Origin: Flavobacteriaceae bacterium
GTDB lineage: Bacteria > Bacteroidota > Bacteroidia > Flavobacteriales > Flavobacteriaceae
Direction: 5' to 3'
Length of the DNA stretch: 64,000 bases
Assembly: GCA_947446865.1 (NCBI GenBank)
Contig: CANFHX010000004.1
Coordinates: 5,901 to 69,900, forward strand
A program made the translations under genes and the position numbers. Under the pieces are notes generated by a model, which saw only the letters and a program-made list of their open reading frames with translations, was not told where the DNA came from and searched no databases. How positions within the stretch are numbered: position 1 is the stretch's first letter; the number at the start of each line of letters is the position of its first letter. Below are positions 23,142-39,549 of this stretch, piece by piece.

Positions 23142-25613
23142 ATGGCAAAAACAGTAAAGAAAGACACAAGCAAATCTAACCTTCCGAGTGAAAAACTTCC
23201 TTGGCAAATTAAGAGACAATACAAAGTAATTATTGGATTTCTTTTAATATTACTTTCCGTTGGTTTATTGGTGGCATTTATTTCCTGGTTTAAATATGGA
23301 TCAGAAGACCAAAGTAATTACAACCATTTTCCTAGTTTGAAAACCGAATCTGGAAATTGGGCTGGACAAATTGGCAGCTTTTTATCCGAATTTTTTATTC
23401 GTAATGGTTTTGGAATAGCATCCTTTATTTTTGTTAAAATATTTCTCCTAACAGGGACCTACTTGGTATTGGATTTACCCTTGAAAAAACTAAAAGCCTC
23501 TTGGTTTTGGGATTTATATTTTCTTGTATTACTTTCGGTTACATTAGGATTTTTTGCTCATACAATTCCAGATCTAGGAGGAACTATAGGTTTTGAAATA
23601 AATGATTTCCTCAGAGTTTTTGTTGGAAATGTTGGAACCATACTTATTTTAGTTTTTGCCGTGTTGATTTATTTATTTTTCAAAGTAAAAGTTTCTCCCG
23701 ATGGTATAAAGACTTTTTTCGAGAAGAGGCAAAAACAGATGAGTGAAGATTTGGCAGAAATGCAATCGGCAGAAAGTGCTTCTTCAGCCTATAATTTAGA
23801 GGAATATGCTGTAGAAGATCCTAATGATGATTTGGATAATCTTATGGAAGCACCCTATATTAAACCTGCTTCACAATTCGAATTAAATAAAGAAGCATTA
23901 AAACCAACTATATCTAGCTATTCGGAAATTGAATTGGAGCCAACTTTGAAATCAGAACCCAAAGCTACTCCCTCTGGTCCTGCCCTTCAAATTAATGAGC
24001 TTGAAATAGTTCCTGCAGTTGAAGATGTTTTTGTAATTGAAAAAGCCCTTGAAGAAGATATTATAGAAGAAAATTTAGCATCTAGATTAGTTGCCGATTT
24101 TGGTTTGTTTGACCCTACTTTAGAACTTTCTAATTATAAATTTCCAACCATTGACTTATTAAAAGAATATTCTTCAGTTGGAATTACCATCAACCAAGCC
24201 GAATTAGAAGAAAACAAAAATAACATTGTAGAAACGCTTCGCAATTACAAAATTGAAATTGCACAAATAAAAGCAACCGTTGGTCCATCGGTAACCTTAT
24301 ATGAAATTGTACCCGAAGCCGGAATTCGTATTTCAAAAATTAAAAGCTTAGAAGATGATATTGCGCTTTCTTTAGCAGCATTAGGAATTCGTATTATAGC
24401 ACCAATTCCCGGTAAAGGAACCATTGGTATTGAGGTTCCTAATAAGAATCCAACTATGGTACCAATGAAAACGGTTATTGGTTCCGCAAAATTTCAAGAG
24501 GCCGAAATGGAATTGCCAATTGCTTTAGGGAAAACAATTTCTAATGAAACCTTTGTAGTAGATTTAGCAAAAATGCCTCACTTATTGATGGCAGGTGCCA
24601 CTGGGCAAGGAAAATCAGTTGGATTAAATGCCGTTTTAACTTCTTTATTATACAAAAAACATCCAGCCGAAGTTAAGTTTGTTTTGGTAGATCCTAAGAA
24701 AGTGGAATTAACGCTTTTCAATAAAATTGAAAGACATTATTTAGCCAAACTTCCGGATTCGGAAGATGCTATCATAACCGATAATAGCAAAGTAATCAAT
24801 ACTTTAAATTCGCTTTGTATCGAAATGGATAATCGATATTCTTTGTTAAAAGATGCGATGGTCAGAAACATTAAAGAATACAACGACAAATTTAAATCTA
24901 GAAAATTAAATCCTGAAAACGGACACCGTTTTTTACCTTATATTGTTTTGGTTGTAGATGAGTTTGCCGATTTAATAATGACGGCTGGTAAAGAAGTAGA
25001 AACTCCTATTGCTCGTTTGGCTCAATTGGCACGTGCTATTGGAATTCACTTAATTATAGCAACTCAAAGACCTTCGGTGAATGTTATTACGGGTATGATT
25101 AAGGCCAACTTTCCGGCTAGAATTGCGTTTAGAGTAACCTCTAAAATAGATTCGAGAACTATTTTAGATACCGGTGGAGCTGATCAATTAATCGGACGTG
25201 GGGATATGCTTTACACCAATGGAAATGATTTAGTTAGGGTGCAATGTGCCTTTGTAGACACTCCGGAGGTAGAACGAATTGTAGACTTTATTGGTTCACA
25301 AAAAGCCTATACAACAGCCTACCTCCTTCCAGAATATGTAGGTGAGGAAAGTAATATTAAATTAGACATCGATGCTTCCGAAAGAGACAACATGTTTAGA
25401 GAGGCTGCAGAAATAATTGTAACCGCCCAACAAGGTTCGGCATCATTATTGCAAAGAAAGTTGAAACTAGGCTACAATCGCGCTGGAAGATTGATTGATC
25501 AGTTGGAAGCAGCAGGAATTGTAGGACCTTTTGAAGGCAGTAAAGCAAGAAGTGTAAACATTTCTGATTTAGTTGCCTTAGACCACTTTTTAAACGACGA
25601 ACAAAATAATTAA
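23142..25613 (+). CDS. ftsK: DNA translocase FtsK
   Basis: N-terminal TMs, Walker A AGATGQGKS, VDEFADL, ATQRPS, C-terminal gamma domain LQRKLKLGYNRAGR. Confidence 0.97.
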   Translation: MAKTVKKDTSKSNLPSEKLPWQIKRQYKVIIGFLLILLSVGLLVAFISWFKYGSEDQSNYNHFPSLKTESGNWAGQIGSFLSEFFIRNGFGIASFIFVKIFLLTGTYLVLDLPLKKLKASWFWDLYFLVLLSVTLGFFAHTIPDLGGTIGFEINDFLRVFVGNVGTILILVFAVLIYLFFKVKVSPDGIKTFFEKRQKQMSEDLAEMQSAESASSAYNLEEYAVEDPNDDLDNLMEAPYIKPASQFELNKEALKPTISSYSEIELEPTLKSEPKATPSGPALQINELEIVPAVEDVFVIEKALEEDIIEENLASRLVADFGLFDPTLELSNYKFPTIDLLKEYSSVGITINQAELEENKNNIVETLRNYKIEIAQIKATVGPSVTLYEIVPEAGIRISKIKSLEDDIALSLAALGIRIIAPIPGKGTIGIEVPNKNPTMVPMKTVIGSAKFQEAEMELPIALGKTISNETFVVDLAKMPHLLMAGATGQGKSVGLNAVLTSLLYKKHPAEVKFVLVDPKKVELTLFNKIERHYLAKLPDSEDAIITDNSKVINTLNSLCIEMDNRYSLLKDAMVRNIKEYNDKFKSRKLNPENGHRFLPYIVLVVDEFADLIMTAGKEVETPIARLAQLARAIGIHLIIATQRPSVNVITGMIKANFPARIAFRVTSKIDSRTILDTGGADQLIGRGDMLYTNGNDLVRVQCAFVDTPEVERIVDFIGSQKAYTTAYLLPEYVGEESNIKLDIDASERDNMFREAAEIIVTAQQGSASLLQRKLKLGYNRAGRLIDQLEAAGIVGPFEGSKARSVNISDLVALDHFLNDEQNN

Positions 25614-26263
25614 TGAAAATGAATAGATTCCTCACCATAGCCCTACTACTTTTAGGTTTTAGTGCGATCACCAATGCGCAAGATAAAAAAGCCAAAACGT
25701 TACTAAGTGCTGTAACGAACAAAATTAAAAGTTATGACAATATTGCCATAGATTTTAAATACACTTTAAATAATTCTAAAGAAAACATTAACCAAGATAG
25801 CAAAGGAAATGTAACTCTTCAAGGCAATAAATACGTTTTGAACTTAATGGGAGTAACAAAAATATTTGATGGAAAAAAAACCTATACTATTGTTCCGGAA
25901 GATGAAGAAATCACAATATCTAATTTAAATGATAGTGATGAAAAAGCAATTACGCCATCTAAAATGCTAACCTTTTTCAATAGTGGATATAAATTTACTT
26001 GGGATATTCTTCAAGACATTAAAGGACGTAAAATTCAATACATCAAATTAACACCAAATAACAACAGAGACCAACGTAAAGAAATTCTTTTAGGTATTGA
26101 TATTCAAACCAAAACGATTTACAACCTTATTGAAATTGGAAAAAATGGTACAAAAACAACTTTGACTGTTAATTCTTTCAAAACCAATCAGCCTTTATCA
26201 AAAAATCAATTCACCTTTGTAGCTAGTAAATATCCAAATTACTATATCAATAAATTAGATTAG
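25613..26263 (+). CDS. lolA: Outer-membrane lipoprotein carrier LolA-family protein
   Basis: Signal peptide, FDGKKTYTIVP, position after ftsK. Confidence 0.85.
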   Translation: MKMNRFLTIALLLLGFSAITNAQDKKAKTLLSAVTNKIKSYDNIAIDFKYTLNNSKENINQDSKGNVTLQGNKYVLNLMGVTKIFDGKKTYTIVPEDEEITISNLNDSDEKAITPSKMLTFFNSGYKFTWDILQDIKGRKIQYIKLTPNNNRDQRKEILLGIDIQTKTIYNLIEIGKNGTKTTLTVNSFKTNQPLSKNQFTFVASKYPNYYINKLD

Positions 26264-26268
26264 TCTTT

Positions 26269-28098
26269 GTGAAAATATTAGATAAGTATTTATTAAAAAC
26301 CTTCTTGATTACATTTACCACGGTATTTGTAATCTTGTTTTTTATATTTATACTTCAAACCGTTTGGTTGTTTATATCCGAGCTTGCAGGAAAGGGATTA
26401 GATGTTATAATGATTCTTAAATTCTTGCTTTTTGCGATGCCTCGCTTAATTCCTTTAGTACTGCCACTTTCAGTGCTTTTAGCTTCTATCATGACATTTG
26501 GAAGTTTATCCGAAAATTATGAATTTGCTGCAATGAAATCTTCAGGAATTTCTTTTCAAAGATCATTAAGAAGCACCACTGGATTTATTATTTTTCTAAG
26601 CGTAATTTCTTTTTTCTTTGCTAACAATGTTATTCCGTATGCCGAATATAAATTTATTAATTTCCGCAGAAACATTGCTCAAGTAAAACCTGCAATGGCA
26701 ATAGCGGAAGGGCAATTTAGTGAAGTAGGGAATTACACTATTAAAGTAGACAAAAAATCAGGTGACAAAGGAAATTACTTAACCGGAGTAACAATCCATA
26801 AAAAACTAGATAATGGCGAAGGAAGCACTACAGTAATTAAAGCCGAAAAAGGAGAATTAGTTAGTAGTGAAACTTCTAATACTCTTAAATTAGTGCTCAC
26901 CAACGGAAATTATTACGAAGACATTATCCCAAAAGATTACGGAGAACGAAATAAAATTCCTTTTGCTAAAGGAACTTTTAAAAGGGATGTTATTAATATT
27001 GACTTATCCAAACTGAACCAATCTAGCATGGAAAGTATAGATATTTCCAATAATACAACCATGTTAAACATACATGAATTACGCTTTACTTTAGATTCCT
27101 TAAATAAAAATTACAAGAAAGATTTAATATCGTATACTGATAATATATATCTTCGAACTAGTGTTGCTAGTACTTTTTACCTTCCACCAACAGCACTAAA
27201 ATTAAAGAAAATTACAGATACTGATTTCATAAAAAAACTTCCTAAATTAGATAAACAAGAAATTTATAAAATAGCAATTAATAACATTGAAAATACTGGG
27301 TTTACCATAAGTAGCTCGATGTTTGAAATGGAATCTAAAGAAAAAAACATCAACAGCCATTGGATTGCCTTTTATGATAAATTCATGATTGCCTTTTCCT
27401 GTTTGCTAATGTTTTTTATAGGAGCGCCCCTTGGATCTATTATCCGTAAAGGAGGACTTGGATTGCCAATAGTATTTGCAGTTTCTATATTTATTGTATT
27501 TCACTTTATTAATACTTTTGGAAAAAGAGTTGCTCAAGAAAATGAAATGTCTGCATTTATGGGAGTTTGGATGTCCTCTTTGATTCTTACACCACTTGCA
27601 ATTTTATTAACATATAGAGCCATCAATGACATTGGCGGAATGGTTAGTTTTGACGGAATGCTAGATCCACTAAAAAAGACTTTAGTTTTTCAAAAAATTA
27701 AAAGTCTTTTCATTAATTCTTCTGAAAATGAAGAAATTATAGACGAAGCTACTTCTATTTCAGAAAAAATTACTGTAGTTTATCCTAAAGAATTAATTGC
27801 AGAATACCATAAAATAAACAAAATTGCTTTAGTCCTTTATGCTATTACAGTCGCAATAGCACTAATTCTAATAAAAATAAATACTCTGATAGTTCTTCTA
27901 CTTGGAGCCATGACTTTACTTGCTTTTTTATATTTTATTTTTAAAGTTCAAAAGAAAATAGAAGAAATTGAAATACAAATACATCAAAAAATAGAACCCG
28001 GAATATTCATTAGCCTTTTAGTAGCATTTCCGTTTTACTTTATTATCTATTTATATTCTAAGAAAGAACTTAGCAAATTGCTAACTACAAACAACTAA
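26269..28098 (+). CDS. LptF/LptG-family LPS export permease with C-terminal membrane extension
   Basis: ILDKYLLK start, [26 protein letters not shown]. About 130 extra C-terminal residues. Confidence 0.88.
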
Positions 28099-28121
28099 AC
28101 CTAATTAACAATACCCTAATA

Positions 28122-29252
28122 ATGTCAAAATCCATACAACTCAATACCATTGAAGAAGCAATAGAAGACATCCGCCAAGGAAAAGTTATTATTGTAGTGG
28201 ATGATGAGGATCGGGAAAACGAAGGTGATTTTTTGGCTGCGGCCGAAAAAGTAACTCCCGAAATGATTAACTTTATGGCTACCCACGGACGCGGATTAAT
28301 CTGTGCTCCGCTTACCGAAAGTCGTTGTAAAGAATTAGAACTTCGCCCTATGGTGAGCAACAATACCGATCACATGGAAACTGCCTTTACTGTTTCCGTT
28401 GATTTAAAAGGTAATGGCGTAACCACCGGAATCTCCGCAGCAGATAGAGCCAAAACCATATTAGCCTTGGTGGATCCTTCTACCAAACCTTATGATTTAG
28501 CACGGCCAGGACACATTTTCCCTTTGGTAGCTAAACAAGGTGGCGTATTAAGAAGAACTGGGCATACCGAAGCAGCAATTGATTTTGCGCGCCTTGCAGG
28601 TTTTAAATCGGCGGGAGTTATTGTAGAAATCATGAATGAAGATGGAACAATGGCAAGACTTCCGCAATTATATGAAGTGGCGCAAAAATTCAATTTGAAA
28701 TTAGTTTCTATTGAAGATTTAGTAGCATACCGAATGCAACACGACAGCCTTATCGTTAAAAAAGAAGATTTTGAGGTACAAACCCGCTTCGGGGATTTTA
28801 GATTGCGTGCTTACCAACAAACAACCAATAAACAAATTCACATTGCGTTAACCAAGGGAACTTGGAATTTAGGTGAAACTGTTTTAACCAAAATAAACTC
28901 CACCCAAGTAAACAACGATTTGTTGGGAACTTTAACCAATAATGCCGACCAACAACTGGACGATATTTTCACCATCATCAACGAAAAAGGTCAAGGTGCA
29001 GTGATTTTCATCAACCAAGATATGCAATCGGTGAATTTATTAAATAGAATTACCGAGTTAAAAACATTACAAGAACAAGGAGTTTTAAAAGCACCCAAAA
29101 TAATCATTGACAGTAAAGATTTTGGTATTGGCGCGCAAATTCTACACGATATTGATATCTCTAAAATACGTTTGATTTCAAATGCCGAGCAAACCAAAAG
29201 GGTTGGAATGATAGGTTACGGCCTTGAAATAATAGAATATGTAAAATATTAA
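28122..29252 (+). CDS. ribB: 3,4-dihydroxy-2-butanone-4-phosphate synthase fused to a degenerate GTP cyclohydrolase II-like domain (RibBX type)
   Basis: [10 protein letters not shown] and RTGHTEA present. C-terminal domain lacks the HSEC...RCDC zinc ligands. Confidence 0.9.
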
Positions 29253-29361
29253 TTATTCAAATTCTAAATTGAAAAAATCTGTAATTTTTTTTTGTTAAAA
29301 ATTTGTAAATAAAATTTATAGATATTCTATTTAATTTATTGAAAAGATTTATTCATGGTTA

Positions 29362-29604
29362 TTAATTGTTCCATGAATTCTTATCGTAAACTTCAATAGT
29401 CTCTTCATTTAGAATTTCAGTCCAAGGGGGCACTTCTCTCTGAGTTCTTATCTGTTTAAGAATTTGGTTGGTTTCTATGGATGTTGTGCAACAAATAATA
29501 GAATATTTTTCATTTTTAAAATGATTAAAATGTGCAGATTGGATATTATAATCAACTTCTAATAAAATAGTATTTTTCAAAGTCATAATCGAAATAAAAT
29601 TCAC
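29362..29604 (-). CDS. Small hypothetical protein, 74-80 aa
   Basis: Fills a 660-bp gap with protein-like composition (ICCTT, VPPWTEIL). Alternative ATG at 29586. No family recognised. Confidence 0.5.
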   Translation of the reverse strand: MNFISIMTLKNTILLEVDYNIQSAHFNHFKNEKYSIICCTTSIETNQILKQIRTQREVPPWTEILNEETIEVYDKNSWNN

Positions 29605-29849: not shown

Positions 29850-29905
29850 AACGTTAAATTTAGTTAAATAACTATAAAAATAGTTGTGTAACTAAAAATA
29901 TAGTT
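29850..29905. promoter_or_regulatory. Three tandem BlaI-type operators at 20-bp period
   Basis: AACGTT-AAAT-TTAGTT, AACTAT-AAAA-ATAGTT, AACTAA-AAAT-ATAGTT, ending 1 nt before -7 octamer TATGTTTG (29907-29914). Confidence 0.7.
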
Positions 29906-29944
29906 ATATGTTTGTTTCATAGTAATGAATTTAAAGTCAAACCC

Positions 29945-30304
29945 ATGCAAAAGTTAACCAATAAAGAAGAAGAAATAATGCATATTTTATGGAAGTTAAA
30001 AAAGGCTTTTGTAAAAGATGTGATGGCTGAAATAACAGAAGAGCAACCACATTATAATACACTTTCCACCATCGTCAGAAACCTAGAAGAAAAAGGCTAT
30101 GTTGGACATAATGCTTATGGAAATACCCACCAATATTTTCCGATTATAGCATTAGAAGATTATCGAAATACCTTCATGAATACGGCTATTGAGAATTACT
30201 TTAATAATTCTTATAAAAATATGGTTTCCTTTTTTGCGGAAGAAGATAAAATTTCGGCAAAAGAATTACGGGAGATTTTGGAGATTATTGAAAATAGAAA
30301 ATAG
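29945..30304 (+). CDS. BlaI/MecI/CopY-family repressor
   Basis: LTNKEEEIMHILW, HYNTLSTIVRNLEEKG. Start moved to ATG 29945. Confidence 0.93.
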   Translation: MQKLTNKEEEIMHILWKLKKAFVKDVMAEITEEQPHYNTLSTIVRNLEEKGYVGHNAYGNTHQYFPIIALEDYRNTFMNTAIENYFNNSYKNMVSFFAEEDKISAKELREILEIIENRK

Positions 30305-30325
30305 GGATTTTAAATTCTATAAATT

Positions 30326-32395
30326 ATGCAAGAATTAATTATTTATCTTTTAAAAGCAAGTGGTTTACTAGTTGCATTCTTTTTGGCGTATCATTTATTG
30401 TTGCGCAAAGAAACTTTTTTCTCAAGCAATCGTTGGTTTTTACTATTCGGATTGGTTGCTTCTGCCCTATTGCCCTTGTTGTTTTTTAAGAAAATAGTTT
30501 ATGTAGAACGCCCTAAAATTTCGTTAGACGATTTAATTGCAATGTCCAATAATCCGAAAGTACTACCATTTAATACTATTACACCTACAATAGAAACTAT
30601 AGATTGGCTTCAAGTTTTTGTATTTGGATATGGCATTGTGGCTTTACTACTTTTAGTTAGAGTAATTGTCAATATTTATTCCATCAGCAGATTATTAAAA
30701 AATAAAGTAGTTCAAAAAGAAAATAGTTTTTCTTTAATTGATTTAAAGGAAAATATCGCTCCGTTTTCATTTTTCAATTTCATTGTATATAATTCGATTT
30801 TATATTCTGAAAATGAATTAGATAGTATCTTATTACATGAAAAAGTGCATAGCCGTCAGAAGCATTCATTAGATGTTTTACTAGTACATTTATTTACAAT
30901 TATTTTTTGGATAAACCCAATAGTATGGTTATACAAAAAAGCGGTTATTCAAAATTTAGAATTCATTGCTGATAGCAAAGCAATCCAACATATAGAAGAT
31001 AAAAAAGCCTATCAAAAAGCGCTTTTAAAGGTAGTTTCTCATCAAAACTGCTTACCAATTACCAATCTTTTTTATCAATCATTAATCAAAAAACGAATCG
31101 TTATGTTAAACAAAAAGCAATCCCACAAAAGAAGTTCTTGGAAGTACACAGTAGTAATTCCGGCATTAATCGCCTTTGTATTTTTATTTCAAATAAAAAT
31201 AGTGGCTCAAGAGAAGGTAGAAAAAGATCCATCAAAAGCAGTAATTGCTATAGTAGTTGGCTTTTCAACTGACAAAAATGCTACTAACGAAGAAATGAAA
31301 AATTATACTAAAGTAGCCAAAGAACAATTAGGTATCGATTATAAATTTTCTAATGTTAAACGAAATGACAAAGGAGAAATTATTGCTATCAAAATTGAAT
31401 ACAAAACCAAAGAAGGTAAATCGGGTAAAATTGAATTGGATTCCGATAATCCAATAGAGACCATTTACTTTAATGCCGATGGGGATAAAGTGGGATTTTC
31501 AAAAAATGAATTTCAAAATTCATCTGATGAAAATAATACCACAGTGGGAATAAATTATAAGGATGCCATCAACTTGGTAAAACAAAATAATGACGGACGC
31601 ACAAATGCGGTTGCTATTCCAAATAACAATGAAGTATCCTTTATAACAAAAAATAAAAACAATGACGATGTTGTAGTCATTCGTCAAGGAAATTTTACTG
31701 GAATAAAAGTTCCAGGAGAACCTACTTTAAATCTAAATAGTAAACCTATTATTGTATTAGATGGTTCTATTGTTGAAGGGGATACTGATAAAATCATCAA
31801 TATGATTAATCCCGATAATATTGAAAGTATGAATGTTATTAAAGGGGAAAATGCTATTAAAAATTATGGCGATAAAGGAAAAAATGGAGTAATTGAGATT
31901 TATGCAAAAGTTAAAACTAAATCAACCAATACTCCTAATAGTATTACTGATAGTGATTATCTATCTATTGTATTAAATTCTAGTGAACCTGATGCGGTTT
32001 GGTATTCTCTATCTAATTATTTCAAAAAGCAAAATATAATTACTGATATTTCTAACATTAAAAGAAATAAGGAAAATAAAATTATTGCCATCACTATAGT
32101 AATGAAATCTAATGATGGAAGAGTTCAAAAATTAAATATAGAAAGAAACACACCTATTAAATCAATTGAACTATTTGTAGATAAAACAAAAAACAAAAAT
32201 TGGGATTTTGGAGTTAAAGAACTTGACCGAGAAATTGAATATAAAAGTGAATTAGATTCAAGTAAAAAGGATGAAATACAAGCGAGAAAAGATGCTATCC
32301 AAGCGAGAAAAGATGCTATCCAAGCAAGGAAAGATGCAGTTCAAGCAAGAAAAGATACGGAACAAGCAAAACTCGATTTAAAGAATAAAAAGTAA
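30326..32395 (+). CDS. BlaR1-like peptidase M56 signal transducer with periplasmic repeat domains and a TonB-receptor plug-like segment
   Basis: PFSFFNFI, HEKVH (HExxH), LEFIAD, LIKKRIVML. C-terminal half includes KPIIVLDG...INPDNIESMNVIKG...YGDKGKNGVIEI. Confidence 0.9.
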   Translation: MQELIIYLLKASGLLVAFFLAYHLLLRKETFFSSNRWFLLFGLVASALLPLLFFKKIVYVERPKISLDDLIAMSNNPKVLPFNTITPTIETIDWLQVFVFGYGIVALLLLVRVIVNIYSISRLLKNKVVQKENSFSLIDLKENIAPFSFFNFIVYNSILYSENELDSILLHEKVHSRQKHSLDVLLVHLFTIIFWINPIVWLYKKAVIQNLEFIADSKAIQHIEDKKAYQKALLKVVSHQNCLPITNLFYQSLIKKRIVMLNKKQSHKRSSWKYTVVIPALIAFVFLFQIKIVAQEKVEKDPSKAVIAIVVGFSTDKNATNEEMKNYTKVAKEQLGIDYKFSNVKRNDKGEIIAIKIEYKTKEGKSGKIELDSDNPIETIYFNADGDKVGFSKNEFQNSSDENNTTVGINYKDAINLVKQNNDGRTNAVAIPNNNEVSFITKNKNNDDVVVIRQGNFTGIKVPGEPTLNLNSKPIIVLDGSIVEGDTDKIINMINPDNIESMNVIKGENAIKNYGDKGKNGVIEIYAKVKTKSTNTPNSITDSDYLSIVLNSSEPDAVWYSLSNYFKKQNIITDISNIKRNKENKIIAITIVMKSNDGRVQKLNIERNTPIKSIELFVDKTKNKNWDFGVKELDREIEYKSELDSSKKDEIQARKDAIQARKDAIQARKDAVQARKDTEQAKLDLKNKK
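32279..32362 (+). repeat. Coding 21-bp x4 tandem repeat encoding (QARKDAI)n heptads
   Basis: caagcgagaaaagatgctatc x2, then variants with mostly synonymous changes. Confidence 0.9.
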
Positions 32396-32405
32396 TTTTA
32401 AAACT

Positions 32406-32436
32406 AAAAGATTGTATATAAATACAATCTTTTTTT
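32406..32436 (+). terminator. Rho-independent terminator
   Basis: aaaagattgtat-ataa-atacaatctttt plus T run. Confidence 0.8.
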
Positions 32437-32555
32437 GTTATTAATAAAAAGTTAATTTCGTTAAAAATTTGCAAAACTATTTTCTACAAAAAAAATCTCT
32501 TTTTAATTTTGTTTGGATTTAAAACTAATACATAAAACCCTAAATTTAATTTGTT

Positions 32556-33460
32556 ATGTTACCAAATAAAAATTATTGGAACTATTCGTTTCTATTAGCG
32601 TTGTTGTTACCTATTTTTTCTTTTGCGCAAAGCGATACGTTTGCGTTAACCGATAACAATATTCATCAAGAGGATATTGTCATGACTTGGAAGAAAAACA
32701 CTCCCGAGAAGGAAATGAAAGACGACTGTAAAGCCTTGGCAGAAAAAGGAATCACTATTAAATATTCGGACGTAAAACGTAACAGTAAAGACGAAATTAC
32801 CGGAATTCGTGTGGAATATTCGGATAGAAAAGGCAACAAAGGAAATTTGGAATACGACAACCAAAAACCTATTGGAACCATTACTTTTTATAAAAATGGC
32901 GAGGAAGTTGGTTTTGGGGAACCCAACAATACTAACGGAATTGCTAGCAATGATTTTATGAATGGTTTTTCCAATCCGCAAGAAATGCTAAAACAATTTC
33001 AATTAGGAAACGGTAATGATAATTCGCAATCGTTTAGTTTTAGTTCCCTAAAGATGGAGAGGGTTTTGGACAGTCGAAATCGAGAATTCAAATTCAAAAA
33101 GACGGAAAGAAACCTTTAGTTATTGAAGATGGAAAAGTTATTGAAGGTGGTGAGGATTATTCTCCCGAAGATTTAGATAAAATAAAAAGCGAAAATAAAG
33201 TAGAACATTTTGGCTTTTCTAATGAAGATGGAAAATCTAACGAGTTTGACTTTAGAAACCAAGAAGGATTGGACAATTTCAAAAAAGAAATGGATAAATT
33301 GATTCCTAATTAGTTAGATAAATCCAAATCAGAAATGGATACTACCAAAGAGGAAATGCTTAAAGCAAAAGAGGAAATGCTTAAAGCAAAAGACGAATTG
33401 GAAAAAGCACGAAAAGAATTAGAAAAATCGAAGGTGAAAGTGAAAACGCAAAAAGCCTAG
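32556..33460 (+). pseudogene. Interrupted secreted protein (about 300 aa) sharing a domain and heptad tail with the M56 protein
   Basis: Signal peptide and domain in the ORF-track frame. A -1 shift at the CCC run 33046-33048 opens PKDGEGFGQSKSRIQIQKDGKKPLVIEDG..., with in-frame TAG at 33311-33313, then (KEEMLKA)n heptads to TAG 33458-33460. Confidence 0.85.
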
Positions 33461-33482
33461 ATAAAACTAATTTAAAAAGTTA

Positions 33483-33541
33483 AACCGCAAATTCGCAAAT
33501 TTATTCACTTTTAAAGTGTTTTAATTTGAGAATTTGCGGTT
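33483..33541. repeat. 19-bp inverted repeat of 9-mer units, likely a bidirectional terminator
   Basis: aaccgcaaattcgcaaatt ... aatttgagaatttgcggtt between convergent genes. Confidence 0.8.
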
Positions 33542-33563
33542 ATTTATTTGAAGGGAAATTTAA

Positions 33564-34595
33564 TTATTTTCCGTCTTTGTCTACTATAATTCTAGCATCA
33601 CGATTGGCTAATTCCCATGTGATAGAGAAACCAAGTTGTGCTCTTTTTGTTAAAGCATCAAACTCAATTTTATCCACTTCATCGCTGGCTTTGTGGTAAT
33701 CGGCGTGCACTCCGTTAAATAAAAACACAACCGGAATTCCATGTTTTGCAAAATTATAATGATCGGAACGGTAATAAAAACGGTTAGGATCTTTTCTGTC
33801 GTTGAATTTATAATCTAAATTAAGATGGGTATATTTAGTATTTACCGCTTCGCAAATATTAAATAAATCGGTAGATAAATAATCCGAACCAATTAAATAA
33901 ACATAATTATTGCTGTCTTTGTGTAATTCGTCTCTTCTGCCTATCATGTCAATATTCACATCTGCAACAGTATTAGCAATAGGAAATAATGGGTTTTCAG
34001 AATAATACTCTGAGCCATACAATCCATGCTCCTCACCTGTCATGTGTAAAATTAATATGGACCGTTTTGGTCCGTGCCCTTCTTTTTTGGCTTTTTCAAA
34101 TGCTTGAGCAATTTCTAATAAAGATACCGTTCCAGAACCATCATCATCGGCTCCGTTATATACTTCTCCGTTTTTAATGCCCACATGGTCGTAATGTGCC
34201 GAAACTACTACAATTTCGTTTGGTTTTTCAGAACCTTCAATAAACGCCCAAATATTAGCTGAATCCGGAAGATTTTCACCTGAATCTTTGTTCATAAATG
34301 CCGCAGGAACCTTTTGATAATAACTATCGGCACCCTTTGGAAACGGAATTCCATCTTTTTTATATTGTTCCACTAAATAGCGTCCAGCCTTTTTTTGGCC
34401 TTCGCTTCCAGTATCTCTACCTTCCATAGTATCGGCAGCAATAATATTTAAATGGACTTTTAACTCAGATTCTGTAATCGAATTAATATAACTTACTTCA
34501 ATTGCTTCTCTATTTTTTGAAACAATTGGGGTTTGAGCATTAGCATAAGAAGCTATTAATAAAGCTACTATTACAAAGGAGGTGATTTTTTTCAT
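33564..34595 (-). CDS. M28-family aminopeptidase
   Basis: SAHYDH, GADDDGSG, GEEHGL, NIDMIG, RSDHYNF, DYH. Signal peptide. Confidence 0.92.
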   Translation of the reverse strand: MKKITSFVIVALLIASYANAQTPIVSKNREAIEVSYINSITESELKVHLNIIAADTMEGRDTGSEGQKKAGRYLVEQYKKDGIPFPKGADSYYQKVPAAFMNKDSGENLPDSANIWAFIEGSEKPNEIVVVSAHYDHVGIKNGEVYNGADDDGSGTVSLLEIAQAFEKAKKEGHGPKRSILILHMTGEEHGLYGSEYYSENPLFPIANTVADVNIDMIGRRDELHKDSNNYVYLIGSDYLSTDLFNICEAVNTKYTHLNLDYKFNDRKDPNRFYYRSDHYNFAKHGIPVVFLFNGVHADYHKASDEVDKIEFDALTKRAQLGFSITWELANRDARIIVDKDGK

Positions 34596-34598
34596 AAA

Positions 34599-35759
34599 TT
34601 AATGGATATTGATAAAGGTGTAAATTGCAAATAAAGTTAAAATGACAAAGATGAAAAATATATTGATAAAGAAGATTATAGTTCCTTTTAAAATAGTTAA
34701 ACCTCTGCTATCACCATAAAAACGATGGTGTGCTGGAAAAAAATAATAAAACATATAAATTATTGCAACGGTGGTAAATATATAATCTATTATTCTAAAA
34801 ATAAGATAATTATCTAGTAAACTTAATAAATAATTTCCCACACTTATTAGTAATATTCCTAAAAGTAAAAAGGAAAAATAATGCAGTGTAAAAATTCCGT
34901 GATCAAAATAATACCATTTCTTTTTATCTTGAAAAAGCCATAAAATAAAGGCAAATAAAGGCATGTAAATGAAAAGAGATTTTGGCAAATTATGTACAAA
35001 GGATTCTATAAATTTTTCTTTTATTTCTTCTTTGGAATATTTTTCTTCTACTAAAAGTATTTTGTGAACAAACCAATATTTAATTGGACTTAATTTTTCG
35101 GATGGTTTACCAAATTTTTGTATAGAATCTAACGCACTCACCGTTTTATATTTTGTCTTAAAAAAGGTAACTTCTTTATTTTCTTTTTCTATTGACTTTT
35201 CTTTATTTGCAATTTTTATATAATTGCGTAATGAGTCTGCTTCTTTTTTAGAAATTATCCCCTTTTTTCTTAACAGATTTATTTTATTAACAATAGAGTC
35301 TTTTTTGGGTAGTGATTTTATAGATTTTTTTGCAGGGTTATCTAATTTATCTTTATAATAAAGTCCTTCATTTGAATTAGATCCTTTATCTGCTTCAAAA
35401 GTAACCAACCCTTTTTCTTTTTTAACCCCATTGTTTTCATCACTTGGAAGCATACTTATCAAAAAGAAAGTAACAAAACTCACAAAAATATATAGACGAA
35501 CTGGTGCCAAATAAGACATTCTTTTTCCTGACAAATATTCTTTACTTAAAGAAGCAGGTCGGAAAATTAAATTTTTTATGGTTTTCCAAAAAGCATTTTC
35601 ATAATGGGTTAAATCTTCAAAAAAATGCACAAATAAATGAAAGAAAGTTTTTCTGGATTCGGTATTTTCTTGACCACAATTGGGGCAAAATCTTTTATCA
35701 ACTACATAATTGCAGTTCAAACAAGTTTTGTCTTTTCGCAAGGAATCGTGTTTGGACAT
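34599..35759 (-). CDS. DUF3667-like membrane protein with N-terminal zinc ribbon
   Basis: CLNC...FCPNCGQE, EYLSGKR...PVRLY, several TM helices. Confidence 0.82.
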   Translation of the reverse strand: MSKHDSLRKDKTCLNCNYVVDKRFCPNCGQENTESRKTFFHLFVHFFEDLTHYENAFWKTIKNLIFRPASLSKEYLSGKRMSYLAPVRLYIFVSFVTFFLISMLPSDENNGVKKEKGLVTFEADKGSNSNEGLYYKDKLDNPAKKSIKSLPKKDSIVNKINLLRKKGIISKKEADSLRNYIKIANKEKSIEKENKEVTFFKTKYKTVSALDSIQKFGKPSEKLSPIKYWFVHKILLVEEKYSKEEIKEKFIESFVHNLPKSLFIYMPLFAFILWLFQDKKKWYYFDHGIFTLHYFSFLLLGILLISVGNYLLSLLDNYLIFRIIDYIFTTVAIIYMFYYFFPAHHRFYGDSRGLTILKGTIIFFINIFFIFVILTLFAIYTFINIH

Positions 35760-35853
35760 AAATGGATATACTATTATTTGATGTAAATCTATTAAAAAAA
35801 ATTATTACTACTTTTGTTTATTATATTTAGTTTTTAAATTTAATTTTAAAAAA

Positions 35854-36315
35854 ATGCAATCCAAAGCAAGCACCCCCGAAGAATACTTATCCGAACTGCC
35901 AGAGGACAGAAAAATTGTTGTTCAAAAAATTCGAGAAGTAGTATTACAAAATTTACCCATAGGCTTTAAAGAAGTCATTTCCTATGGAATGTTAGGATAC
36001 GTAGTTCCGCATGAAATCTATCCTGATGGTTATCATTGTACTCCCAAGTTGCCTTTGCCTTTTTTTAATATCGCATCGCAAAAAAACTCGGTAAACATCT
36101 ACAATTTAGTAATTTATGCAAACAAAGACATTCACGATTGGTTTGTATCCGAATATCCAAAACATAGTAAATACAAGCTAGACATGGGCAAAGGCTGCAT
36201 CCGATTTAAAAAACTAGATGCTATTCCGTATGAATTAATAGGGGAATTAATATCAAAAGTTTCGGTAGAACAATGGATTGAAATGTATGAAAACACGATT
36301 AAAAACAAAAAATGA
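35854..36315 (+). CDS. DUF1801 (YdhG-like) protein
   Basis: ISYGMLGYVVP, IASQKN, DMGKGCIRFKK. Confidence 0.85.
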   Translation: MQSKASTPEEYLSELPEDRKIVVQKIREVVLQNLPIGFKEVISYGMLGYVVPHEIYPDGYHCTPKLPLPFFNIASQKNSVNIYNLVIYANKDIHDWFVSEYPKHSKYKLDMGKGCIRFKKLDAIPYELIGELISKVSVEQWIEMYENTIKNKK

Positions 36316-36947
36316 AGCAATTACTGACACAAATTTACAGCAGTGTATTTGAAGAAAAACTGGTTGAAGAATTGGCTTTAGTTTCTACTTTACATTCCTT
36401 TGAATCTGGAGATATCATTATTGATTTTGGAAATACAATAAATCAAATGCCATTATTGGTTAATGGTGCCATAAAAATTTTAAGAGAAGATTTTGAGGAA
36501 GGCGAATTACTATTGTATTTTATTGAAAAAGGAGATACCTGCGCCATAACTTTAACCACTTGCATCAACCAATCTAAAAGTGAAATTCGAGCAACTGCAG
36601 AAACTAATGGTCAGGTAGTAATGATTCCATTAGAAAAAATGCAGGAGTGGTTGGGTAAATATACAAGTTGGCGCAATTTTATTTTTAATAGTTATAATAA
36701 TAGGTTAAAAGAAATGCTCTCGGCTATTGATACACTAGCTTTTATGAATATGGAAGAGCGATTATTGCACTATTTAATAGACAAGGCAAAAATTAATCAT
36801 TCTCGAGAAATAAATAGTACGCATCAAGAAATTGCTTACGATTTGCATAGTTCAAGAGTGGTTATTTCTAGGATGCTCAAAGTTTTAGAAAACAAAGGAT
36901 GCCTACAATTACACCATGGCTCTATAACCTTAACCAGTCGAAAGTAA
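36312..36947 (+). CDS. Crp/Fnr-family transcriptional regulator
   Basis: cNMP-like domain (GAIKI...LLYFIEKGDTC) and HTH THQEIAYDLHSSRVVISRMLK. ATGA overlap with the DUF1801 gene. Confidence 0.92.
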   Translation: MKQLLTQIYSSVFEEKLVEELALVSTLHSFESGDIIIDFGNTINQMPLLVNGAIKILREDFEEGELLLYFIEKGDTCAITLTTCINQSKSEIRATAETNGQVVMIPLEKMQEWLGKYTSWRNFIFNSYNNRLKEMLSAIDTLAFMNMEERLLHYLIDKAKINHSREINSTHQEIAYDLHSSRVVISRMLKVLENKGCLQLHHGSITLTSRK

Positions 36948-36958
36948 CATTTGTAGCA
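36943..36958 (+). promoter_or_regulatory. Candidate Crp/Fnr-family site upstream of the TauE gene
   Basis: AGTAAC-ATTT-GTAGCA, 20 nt before TAAATTTA (36979-36986). Confidence 0.55.
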
Positions 36959-37018
36959 AACAATAATTGAATTAGTTGTAAATTTACCCTTTAATCCTAT
37001 TAACCCAAATCAAACTAA

Positions 37019-37822
37019 ATGGAACTAAATTCTATTTTTGGATACCTATCTGCCGTACTTGTTGGAGTTACTTTAGGATTAATTGGCAGTGGCGGATCGA
37101 TTTTGTCTGTTCCAATATTAGTTTATATCATGGGTGTCGAACCCATTTTGGCTACAGCCTATTCCCTTTTTATTGTTGGAACCACTGCCCTATTTGGTGG
37201 TTTTCAAAAGGCAAAACAAAAACTAGTCGATTTTAGAAAAGTAGTTTTATTTGGTATCCCAACTATTCTTTCGGTATTCATAACCAGAAAAATAATTGTT
37301 CCTAGAATACCGGAAATAGTATTTTCAACTTCAGTTTTCACCTTACATAAATCGGTTTTCATCATGATTATTTTTGCAATAGTCATGATTTTTGCTTCCA
37401 TTCGAATGATAAAACCTTTGCAAATTGAAATTCAAGAAGGGGAAGGAAAACTAAATTACATTAAAATCTTTATTCAAGGAGTATTAATTGGTTTAGTTGC
37501 AGGATTTGTAGGTGCTGGTGGGGGATTTTTAATCATTCCAGCCTTGTTGTTTCTTGCCAAAACTCCAATGAAAATGGCAGTAGGAACCTCTCTTTTTATT
37601 GTTGCTGCCCAATCTTTAATTGGGTTTCTTGGAGATTTAAGACCCGAACAAAACCTAAATTGGAATTTACTAATAACTTTTACAATCTGCTCCATAATAG
37701 GTGTTTTTACAGGAAGTTATTTATCTAAAAAAATAGAAGGCGAAAAACTAAAAACCGGATTTGGATGGTTCGTTTTAGCAATGGGAATTTACATTATTTT
37801 AAAAGAAATAATTTTAAAATAA
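37019..37822 (+). CDS. TauE/SafE-family sulfite exporter
   Basis: GLIGSGGSILSVP and GFVGAGGGFLIIP repeats, AVGTSL, about 8 TM helices. Confidence 0.92.
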   Translation: MELNSIFGYLSAVLVGVTLGLIGSGGSILSVPILVYIMGVEPILATAYSLFIVGTTALFGGFQKAKQKLVDFRKVVLFGIPTILSVFITRKIIVPRIPEIVFSTSVFTLHKSVFIMIIFAIVMIFASIRMIKPLQIEIQEGEGKLNYIKIFIQGVLIGLVAGFVGAGGGFLIIPALLFLAKTPMKMAVGTSLFIVAAQSLIGFLGDLRPEQNLNWNLLITFTICSIIGVFTGSYLSKKIEGEKLKTGFGWFVLAMGIYIILKEIILK

Positions 37823-37887
37823 TTCACTAAAGATTATGTTTATTTTAGGATGTTACTTTTAACGTTCCTTGTTTTATTTACTAACTT

Positions 37888-37903
37888 TGTAACAACTGTT
37901 ACT
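37888..37903 (+). promoter_or_regulatory. Candidate Crp/Fnr-family site upstream of the MBL-rhodanese gene
   Basis: TGTAAC-AACT-GTTACT, 21 nt before TACTTTTA (37925-37932). Confidence 0.65.
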
Positions 37904-37951
37904 TACATTACCGAGTAACCTTATTACTTTTACTTTTTAATTTAGTTTATT

Positions 37952-39358
37952 ATGAAAATTGAACAAATTTATACTGGTTGTTTAGCACAAGGTGCTTATT
38001 ATATTGAGAGCAATGGCGAAGTTGCAATTATTGACCCATTACGCGAAGTGCAACCCTATATTGACCGAGCCAATGCCGATAACGCATCTATAAAATATAT
38101 TTTTGAAACCCATTTCCATGCTGATTTTGTTAGCGGTCACGTGACTTTATCCGAAAAAACTAAGGCTCCAATAGTTTTTGGTCCAAATGCTAATCCGAGT
38201 TATGATGCAGTTGTAGCCACTGACGGACAAGTTTTTCCGCTTGGAGATATTACCATAACTTGCTTGCATACTCCTGGACATACTATGGAAAGTGCCTGTT
38301 ATTTGTTAAAAGACAAAGACGGAAAAGATTATGCTTTATTTAGTGGAGATACGGTGTTTTTAGGTGATGTTGGAAGACCCGATTTAGCCCAAAAAGCAGC
38401 CCACATGACACAAGAGGAATTGGCTGGTTTATTATTTGATAGTATTCAAACTAAAATAATGCCCTTAGCAGATGATGTAATTATATACCCAGCACATGGT
38501 GCCGGTAGCGCTTGTGGAAAAAATTTAAGCAAAGAGACTGTTGGAACCATTGGCGATCAAAAAGCTACTAATTATGCGCTTCGTGCCAACATGACCCGTC
38601 AAGAATTCATTAACGAAGTTACCGATGGCTTGCTGCCTCCTCCTGCTTATTTTCCGATGAATGTGAAATTAAATAAAGAAGGTTATGGCAATGTAGAAGA
38701 CATCATAAGCAATGCCAAAGCGCTAAATGCGAAAGATTTTGAACTTATAGCCAATGAAACCAGTGCTTTGATTTTGGATGTTCGTAGTGAAGATGAATTT
38801 GCTAAAGGACATATTCCTAATTCCATTTTTATCGGAATTAATGGTGCTTTTGCCCCTTGGGTTGGTGCTTTAATTTTGGATATTAAACAACCCATTCTTT
38901 TGGTAACCCCAATTGGAAAAGAAGCAGAAACTATAAAAAGATTAGCCCGTGTTGGATATGATGCCACCATTGGATATTTGGAAGGTGGATTGGAAACATG
39001 GAAAAATGCGGGCTTCGAATTGGATACAATAAATTGTATTTCTGCTGAAACTTTAGAAGAAAAAATACAAGAGAATATAGCAGTTTTTGATGTTAGAAAA
39101 CCAGGCGAATATACTGCCGAACATCTTAACGAAGCACCTTCTACTCCTTTGGATTTTTTAAACGATCATTTATCGGAATTTCCAAAAGAGAAAGAATTTT
39201 ATCTTTTTTGCGCTGGCGGATACCGCTCTATGATTGCGGCGTCCATCCTTAAAGCAAGAGGATACGATAATGTAATTAATGTAAATGGCGGATTTGCTGC
39301 CATCAAAAAAACCGGAATTAAAACAACAAATTTTGTTTGTCCATCTACTATTAAATAA
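37952..39358 (+). CDS. Persulfide dioxygenase-like MBL-fold protein fused to two rhodanese domains (CstB/Blh-like)
   Basis: ETHFHADFVSG, HTPGHT, GDVGRPDL, PAHGAGSACG. Rhodanese LDVR...GHIP and DVR...FCAGGYRS. Confidence 0.9.
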   Translation: MKIEQIYTGCLAQGAYYIESNGEVAIIDPLREVQPYIDRANADNASIKYIFETHFHADFVSGHVTLSEKTKAPIVFGPNANPSYDAVVATDGQVFPLGDITITCLHTPGHTMESACYLLKDKDGKDYALFSGDTVFLGDVGRPDLAQKAAHMTQEELAGLLFDSIQTKIMPLADDVIIYPAHGAGSACGKNLSKETVGTIGDQKATNYALRANMTRQEFINEVTDGLLPPPAYFPMNVKLNKEGYGNVEDIISNAKALNAKDFELIANETSALILDVRSEDEFAKGHIPNSIFIGINGAFAPWVGALILDIKQPILLVTPIGKEAETIKRLARVGYDATIGYLEGGLETWKNAGFELDTINCISAETLEEKIQENIAVFDVRKPGEYTAEHLNEAPSTPLDFLNDHLSEFPKEKEFYLFCAGGYRSMIAASILKARGYDNVINVNGGFAAIKKTGIKTTNFVCPSTIK

Positions 39359-39549
39359 TGAAAAATATTTTATTTACAAATTGGAATATAATGCGAATTA
39401 TTCGTTTGGCTTTTGCGATAGTATTATTTACTCAAGCGGCTCAAAAGTTCGAGTGGTATTTAATTATATTTGGATTGTTTTTTCTGGTTCAAGCAGTATT
39501 TAATTTTGGATGTAGTGCCAACGGATGTGCAATTCCTAAAAAGAAATAA
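39358..39549 (+). CDS. Small 2-TM protein (DUF2892/YgaP-like)
   Basis: MRIIRL, two TM helices, C-terminal FGCSANGC. Translationally coupled to the upstream gene. Confidence 0.75.
   Translation: MKNILFTNWNIMRIIRLAFAIVLFTQAAQKFEWYLIIFGLFFLVQAVFNFGCSANGCAIPKKK

Follow-up and report, generated by a model that had tools for sequence, protein, structure and literature searches.

Results

A three-gene locus with one BlaI and one M56 protein

We analysed a stretch of 64,000 nucleotides (the window) from contig CANFHX010000004.1 of the Flavobacteriaceae bacterium assembly GCA_947446865.1, with attention to three consecutive genes on its + strand, to which the coordinates below refer unless stated otherwise. 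These are blaI (29945–30304), a gene for an M56 membrane protein (30326–32395) and a third gene (32556–33460), here called the partner gene. An original prediction, made from the DNA letters, had described this trio as an envelope signalling system in which the M56 sensor and a soluble partner share an unnamed domain. The source genome is a low-GC, Flavobacterium-like draft of 3.07 Mb in 76 contigs (95% complete). Searches with hidden Markov models (HMMs) found in it a single BlaI, a single M56 protein and three copies of the shared domain, which we call domain X, all of them at the trio locus.

The product of blaI, 119 amino acids (aa) long, is a repressor of the BlaI/MecI/CopY family. It matches Penicillinase_R (PF03965) over its full length (residues 4–116 of 119; E 1.4e-30; 106 bits against a cut-off of 22.6). 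The second gene encodes a BlaR1-like membrane metalloprotease and sensor of 689 aa, which scores 57 bits against Peptidase_M56 (PF05569; cut-off 31). Its zinc-protease motif, HEKVH, lies at residues 171–175 (nt 30836–30850), and in the alignment of M56 orthologs (A3) conservation of the H-E-x-x-H and E..AD columns is 90% or higher. With the NCBIfam model of BlaR1 (NF000326), for which the cut-off is 400 bits, the protein reaches 42 bits in a match confined to residues 160–301, so that it does not classify as a BlaR1 equivalog.

The original prediction stated that the sensor has no penicillin-binding domain and no beta-lactamase next door, and our scans agree with this. Neither Pfam nor NCBIfam gave a transpeptidase match in the C-terminal 400 aa of the M56 protein, the same scans detected no penicillin-binding protein (PBP) or transpeptidase domain in any of the trio proteins, and no beta-lactamase is present among the neighbours of the trio.

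The sensor ectodomain

The outer part of the M56 protein contains two copies of domain X on either side of a piece resembling the plug of TonB receptors, as originally described. Copy 1 covers residues 314–393 (31265–31504; HMM 1.4e-30) and is confidently modelled by AlphaFold, with a predicted local distance difference test (pLDDT) of 82–94. Copy 2 covers residues 549–630 (31970–32215; HMM 5e-19; pLDDT 71–89) and falls into a separate “type B” clade (support 99/91).

The piece between them (residues 457–528; 31694–31909; pLDDT 60–75) gave matches below the cut-offs, namely 19.1 bits against 23.9 for the plug family PF07715 and 21.4 against 46.2 for the SusC signature TIGR04057, together with an E-value of 7e-9 for TIGR04056. 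Some relatives exceed the plug cut-off (P0145 reaches 40 bits). These scores point to a short plug-like motif, real but weak, rather than to a complete plug.

The protein ends in a long predicted helix (32228–32392; pLDDT 86–92) made of QARKDAI heptads, which Tandem Repeats Finder reports as a 21-bp tandem repeat of 3.7 copies at 32279–32356. The close orthologs L003 and L005 are 90–94% identical to the window protein. QARKDA[IV] heptads number four in the window and three in L003, and the M56 proteins are 689 and 682 aa long, respectively. The difference of one heptad between close orthologs suggests slippage of the 21-bp repeat.

This architecture is not the usual one. Most partner-adjacent M56 proteins of Flavobacterium consist of one domain X, a P-x-x-x-D-G piece and a helical tail rich in K, E, A and M, and the clade of the window gained the second domain copy, as a well-supported subtype, along with the diverged QARKDAI tail. 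We also observed four loci (L041, L053, L058 and L063) with two tandem M56 genes after one blaI; the first protein ends in “...VITTK”, the second has a helical tail, and the partner follows.

Domain X as a new ectodomain family

That the three segments are homologous, as the original prediction had read from the letters, is borne out by both sequence and models. In BLASTP comparisons copy 1 is 41% identical to the partner protein (E 2e-21) and 29% identical to copy 2 (E 1e-10), and in all copies modelled, from the M56 protein and from a partner ortholog, AlphaFold predicts the same fold of about 80 aa, with one strand, one helix and five strands. In the model of the partner ortholog the domain reaches a pLDDT of 84–91; the linkers are poorly predicted, and each of the two proteins has a long terminal helix. 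Whether they come from sensor or partner, the copies invariably have R41 and I72, and conservation reaches 90% or more at K40, N42, I47 and I50.

We built a profile (A4) from 33 diverse copies. None of these members had a match below E 1e-3 in a scan of Pfam-A, NCBIfam gave no match, and the best hit of the sequence profile in the PDB had an E-value of 0.53. Two Foldseek searches of the PDB returned best E-values of 0.09–0.17; sensitivity was reduced here, since each query was a complete multi-domain model that included low-confidence linkers, and a weak likeness may have escaped. In the literature we found no paper on domain X or on the blaI–M56–partner trio. Domain X thus appears to be a new ectodomain family, predicted from sequence and models and undescribed in the Pfam-A copy, NCBIfam and PDB that were searched, and the word “unnamed” of the original prediction holds within these resources. 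Two homologs (P0089 and P0122) carry the precomputed labels PF28019.1 and PF26539.1, which lie outside the Pfam copy searched, and a newer Pfam may cover part of the family.

The family is large. Against 1.84 billion representative sequences the A4 profile retrieved 1,274 proteins at E ≤ 1e-3, including 672 at E ≤ 1e-10. Among the best 150 matches, M56 proteins account for 111 and carry between one and four copies each. About 25 are secreted proteins of 270–330 aa that combine a single copy with a charged helical tail, and the others are mostly fragment-like. With one genome taken per genus, domain X was present in 140 of 250 genera of Flavobacteriaceae.

We also considered gene conversion between sensor and partner and rejected it, as the copies did not cluster by genome in a tree of 133 copies, which is based on 79 columns and leaves many forks unresolved.

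The partner is a free copy of the ectodomain and is broken in this genome

The partner gene begins with a predicted signal peptide (32556–32627), followed by copy 3 of domain X at partner residues 45–123 (32688–32924; HMM). Its end carries a 21-bp repeat encoding KEEMLKA heptads (33332–33427; Tandem Repeats Finder), so that both proteins end in heptad repeats, as had been noticed earlier. The likeness between the two proteins extends beyond a single shared domain. In a global hhalign comparison the partner family is collinear with the whole ectodomain of a typical adjacent M56 protein (259 columns, 32% identity, E 8.8e-64), which suggests that the partner is a free, signal-peptide-bearing copy of the entire sensor ectodomain. 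This is a stronger relationship than the one originally claimed.

The earlier description of 32556–33460 as a single open gene did not hold. Intact partner orthologs are 291–316 aa long (typically about 301), and it is by homology to them that the gene can be traced across the region. In the window, frame 0 ends in a stop at 33119 and the remainder lies in another frame. The first lesion is a deletion of 1 nt in a T run at about 33044–33045, where relatives have AGTTTC and the window has AGTTC. The second is an in-frame TAG at 33311–33313 in place of the TCG of relatives. Judged from these two lesions, the partner would be inactivated in this genome; blaI and the M56 gene are intact.

A putative BlaI operator

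Upstream of blaI we found two putative operator dyads of 14 bp each, TAGTT-N4-AACTA, to which no strand is assigned: dyad 1, TAGTTAAATAACTA, at 29861–29874 and dyad 2, TAGTTGTGTAACTA, at 29881–29894, 20 bp after the first. They are followed by a third half-site, TAGTTA, and a Bacteroidetes-type −7 box of the TAnnTTTG type, TATGTTTG, at 29901–29914, which was read from the sequence, is kept in orthologous promoters and probably acts as a promoter element. The layout is preserved nearly letter for letter in about 40 of the 43 Flavobacterium loci with an adjoining partner and in 5 of the 7 such loci of other genera.

Strict-dyad and tandem-dyad scans of the whole genome showed that the dyads in the blaI promoter are the sole exact matches and the sole convincing tandem pair in 3.07 Mb; single dyads with one mismatch occur at or below chance. 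These data argue that BlaI has an operator in its own promoter and would therefore be autoregulatory. A wider BlaI regulon was considered and rejected, since both scans returned the blaI promoter alone.

Linkage of sensor and partner

The partner family, as defined by alignment A1, occurs at 101 places, all in Flavobacterium or flavobacterial bins, and 65 of these loci had enough upstream DNA for linkage to be counted. The blaI–M56 pair adjoins the partner in 43 of the 65, directly upstream in 40 and directly downstream in 3. Outside Flavobacterium, 7 of the 8 short proteins with the domain that we examined in other genera of the family adjoin blaI–M56, either before blaI or after M56; BlaI is 72–79% identical across genera. 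The co-occurrence of the trio proposed in the original prediction was therefore recovered for the majority of loci, and failed for the 22 of 65 in which the partner stands alone: adjacency is frequent, not obligatory.

The tails of the two proteins do not follow the same pattern. Conserved partner tails occur beside M56 proteins ending in “...VITTK” (at least 6 loci) or in a tail of the “FEKEME” type (8 loci), and in other genera the short partner-like protein has a C-terminal plug-like motif and no helix. Taken from these sequences, coiled-coil pairing does not appear to be a general feature of sensor–partner loci.

The partner's own upstream element and the 3.15-kb segment

The partner has a conserved upstream element of its own. 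A box, GTTAAAAATTTGYAAA, precedes the partner start by about 95 nt in nearly all loci, whether or not M56 is present. In the window it forms part of the 16-bp box GTTAAAAATTTGCAAA at 32460–32475 (the right box), which is followed by a −7-like box, TAATTTTG, at 32504–32511. The distance from GTTAAAAATTTGYAAA to the −7-like box (TAAnTTTG) is 31–32 nt (window 32460–32511; L003–L082); this gap is too large for a normal −33 element, so the box may be the site of another regulator.

Apart from the right box, the genome contains one further exact copy of the 16-bp sequence, the left box (GTTAAAAATTTGTAAA), which is at 29294–29309, at the junction after ribBA. As both copies belong to the trio locus, we rejected the idea that the box is a wider regulon motif.

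The same boxes mark the ends of a segment that is missing from a relative. DNA of L004 aligns to window positions 24017–29309 and 32456–39437, and the intervening 3.15 kb, containing an 80-aa open reading frame (ORF), blaI and M56, is absent. In the window this segment is bracketed by the two exact boxes, and L004 has a single one (L004:5904–5923). Its partner is 91% identical and stands at the same chromosomal site in the order RibBA–partner–M28. The difference fits either an insertion or a deletion, which may have occurred by recombination at the box.

Just 3′ of the M56 stop codon lies an AT-rich hairpin followed by a U run, which resembles a terminator (32406–32440; dG −11.4 kcal/mol, z −4.56). 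Similar hairpins were seen in 5 other loci, with spacers of 64–76 nt. In 25 loci the box begins between −5 and +27 nt from the M56 stop codon, which leaves no room for a terminator.

Discussion

A proposed regulated-proteolysis switch with a self-similar output

We propose that the trio is a regulated-proteolysis switch of the BlaI/BlaR1 type, belonging to a Flavobacteriaceae-wide lineage, in which the partner acts as output and feedback and shares the cue of the sensor. We would put the probability of this reading at about 45%. A periplasmic cue would be bound through the conserved face of domain X (a K-R-N hairpin and a P-I motif) and would activate M56; active M56 would then cleave BlaI and de-repress the blaI–M56 operon. 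In most species there appears to be no terminator between M56 and the partner, and the partner would be raised by read-through. As the output of the switch, the partner would exert negative feedback because it would bind the same cue. Such a relation between sensor and partner would parallel that in BlaR1, where sensor domain and beta-lactamase are related. The notion of a shared cue draws support from the identical residues (R41, I72 and others) conserved in sensor and partner copies.

The partner itself may be the older, independent core gene, beside which blaI–M56 would serve as an accessory control module. We read it in this way because the L004 site carries it without blaI–M56, because it has its own box and because it evolves slowly in the domain tree. 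In the genome studied here, the two lesions together with the terminator-like hairpin suggest that the switch now controls itself alone.

Several observations weigh against the proposed switch. Besides the 22 loci that lack a neighbouring blaI–M56, we considered five genomes with an orphan partner, some of them metagenome bins that may be incomplete: three lack any M56 ortholog, a fourth has a paralog of 42% identity and the fifth only a distant M56. Orphans without a cognate M56 suggest that the partner has a function that needs no sensor. We found no BlaI operator upstream of the partner; a match with one mismatch in 5 of 79 loci is noise. The tandem site occurs once in the genome, so by the strict motif the direct regulon would be the blaI–M56 operon itself, and a scan with that motif is blind to diverged or single-dyad sites. 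Finally, in the clade of the window the terminator-like hairpin stands between M56 and the partner. Thus, of the envelope signalling system first predicted, the BlaI/M56 type, the paralogous soluble protein and the recurrent linkage stand; the partnership is not obligatory, and here its soluble member is broken.

A broader version of the proposal is rather doubtful. It would hold that self-similar envelope switches occur throughout the family, that the M56 ectodomain copies the adjacent secreted protein and probably controls it, that domain X, as a new ligand-binding fold, reads one periplasmic cue in both, and that blaI–M56 is a movable control cassette which the partner gene can gain or lose.

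Alternative explanations

It is also possible, if unlikely, that the adjacency of the two genes is a historical trace with no functional link today. The ectodomain would then have arisen by duplication or fusion of its neighbour, or the reverse, the partner would be an independent periplasmic or secreted protein, and blaI–M56 would sense something unrelated. The partner's own conserved promoter box, the lack of a BlaI operator before it and its solitary position in 22 of 65 loci are all consistent with this, as is the persistence of an intact blaI–M56 beside a broken partner. Moreover, the 3.15-kb blaI–M56 segment, with a 16-bp direct repeat on either side, is polymorphic as an indel, and the domain copies do not cluster by genome, which suggests that there has been no recent exchange between sensor and partner. 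However, the pairing is kept, in either gene order, across at least 8 genera with BlaI 72–79% identical, and this is hard to explain by inheritance alone because the region rearranges often. Sensor and partner copies also have their conserved residues in common, and most loci are tightly packed, without room for a terminator; both facts favour a link that still operates.

The original prediction had suggested a more direct contact, in which the heptad tails pair as a heterodimeric coiled coil, so that the soluble protein docks on the M56 ectodomain and tunes signalling as a partner or decoy. About 23 Flavobacterium loci do have K/E/A/M-rich heptad helices in both tails that can be aligned with each other, the repeats of the window share one register ([A/M][I/L]xA[R/K]x[D/E], as read from the sequence), AlphaFold predicts long helices in both proteins, and the genes are recurrently linked. 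Yet the partner tail is also kept beside M56 proteins with another tail or no coiled coil, the partners of other genera end in the plug-like motif instead, and orphan partners exist. In the clade of the window the tails have drifted apart (QARKDAI in the sensor, KEEMLKA in the partner), and the partner gene is disrupted. Ala and Met occupy most of the a and d positions of the heptads and charged residues abound, so a single stable helix is possible as well. We regard coiled-coil docking as decidedly unlikely.

Less likely still, both partner lesions could stem from faulty assembly or consensus calling in a draft genome of this fragmentation and completeness, the gene being intact in the organism; the loss of 1 nt in a short homopolymer would lend itself to such an error. 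Against this, the two lesions, which lie within 270 nt, are independent and differ in kind, one being a substitution; the rest of the window has no run of broken genes in its ORF list, and records of the truncated 187-aa product come from 2 contigs.

Relation to known systems

The proposed switch resembles BlaR1/BlaI and MecR1/MecI of Staphylococcus aureus in uniting a PF03965 winged-helix repressor and an HExxH M56 protease in one operon, in the paired dyads in the repressor's own promoter and in the position of the sensor part after the last membrane helix. Unlike these systems, the trio has no transpeptidase-like sensor, beta-lactamase or PBP2a target; its ectodomain consists of domain X, its operator half-sites are TAGTT/AACTA, and its M56 protein falls far short of the BlaR1 equivalog score.

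A third gene linked to the sensor–repressor pair, which modulates or completes the system, is also found in mecR1-mecI-mecR2. Its product, MecR2, is a cytoplasmic anti-repressor unrelated to the sensor, whereas the trio partner has a signal peptide and is an ectodomain paralog. By analogy, the proposed logic would also recall CpxP, a periplasmic protein that is induced by the Cpx pathway and damps the sensor CpxA: in both cases a periplasmic product of the regulated unit would lower the signal. In contrast to the partner, CpxP shows no paralogy with the sensor domain of CpxA, and it works within a two-component system.

Bacteroidota have many M56/BlaI pairs, and knowledge of the cues they sense hardly extends beyond the beta-lactam paradigm. 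An atypical BlaIR of Pseudomonas aeruginosa (PvmSR) is described as a BlaI/BlaR-like pair unconnected with beta-lactams (bioRxiv 10.64898/2026.08.03.742534). TonB1 and TonB10 of Bacteroides thetaiotaomicron are fusions of M56 and TonB_C, and Bacteroidota M56 proteins are reported to carry varied, functionally uncharacterised envelope domains (TonB_C, CarboxypepD_reg, Plug-like; PMC10350073). As far as the accessible text of these papers goes, PvmSR and TonB1/TonB10 resemble the trio in using the M56/BlaI chassis for cues other than beta-lactams and differ from it in that neither a domain X ectodomain nor an adjacent free secreted paralog is described there.

The locus offers a clean single-copy example with a defined putative operator, a new ectodomain family and a recurrent free paralog. 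It points to a circuit, accessible to testing, that would use a single binding module for both sensor and output, and it gives grounds for defining a new domain family. Experimental handles in culturable flavobacteria include the operator DNA, intact trios in named strains such as Flavobacterium aquatile LMG 4008 and F. mekongense TBRC 19031, and natural genomes in which the partner is alone or broken.

Other features of the locus

The trio is surrounded by genes for an LptF/G permease, RibBA, a family-less 80-aa ORF, an M28 peptidase, DUF3667 and DUF1801. The context upstream of the trio varies among close relatives: L003, L005 and L006 have no ribBA there, and the region is often rearranged.

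The 80-aa ORF (29362–29604, − strand), part of the 3.15-kb segment absent from L004, had no Pfam match. Its DNA is conserved at about 73–75% nucleotide identity in L003, L005 and L006, the last of which has no blaI–M56, and the ORF may be a gene.

One typical Flavobacterium trio, with a BlaI 92% identical to that of the window, came from a metagenome bin labelled Bifidobacterium breve (L020, CALPIE020000062.1), a label which is probably a binning or labelling error.

In three loci of other genera (L090–L092) a near-perfect palindrome, AAAGTTTA-GT-TAAACTTT, lies about 70–85 nt upstream of the short domain-bearing gene. In the same loci a GC-containing terminator hairpin follows that gene and precedes the blaI operator.

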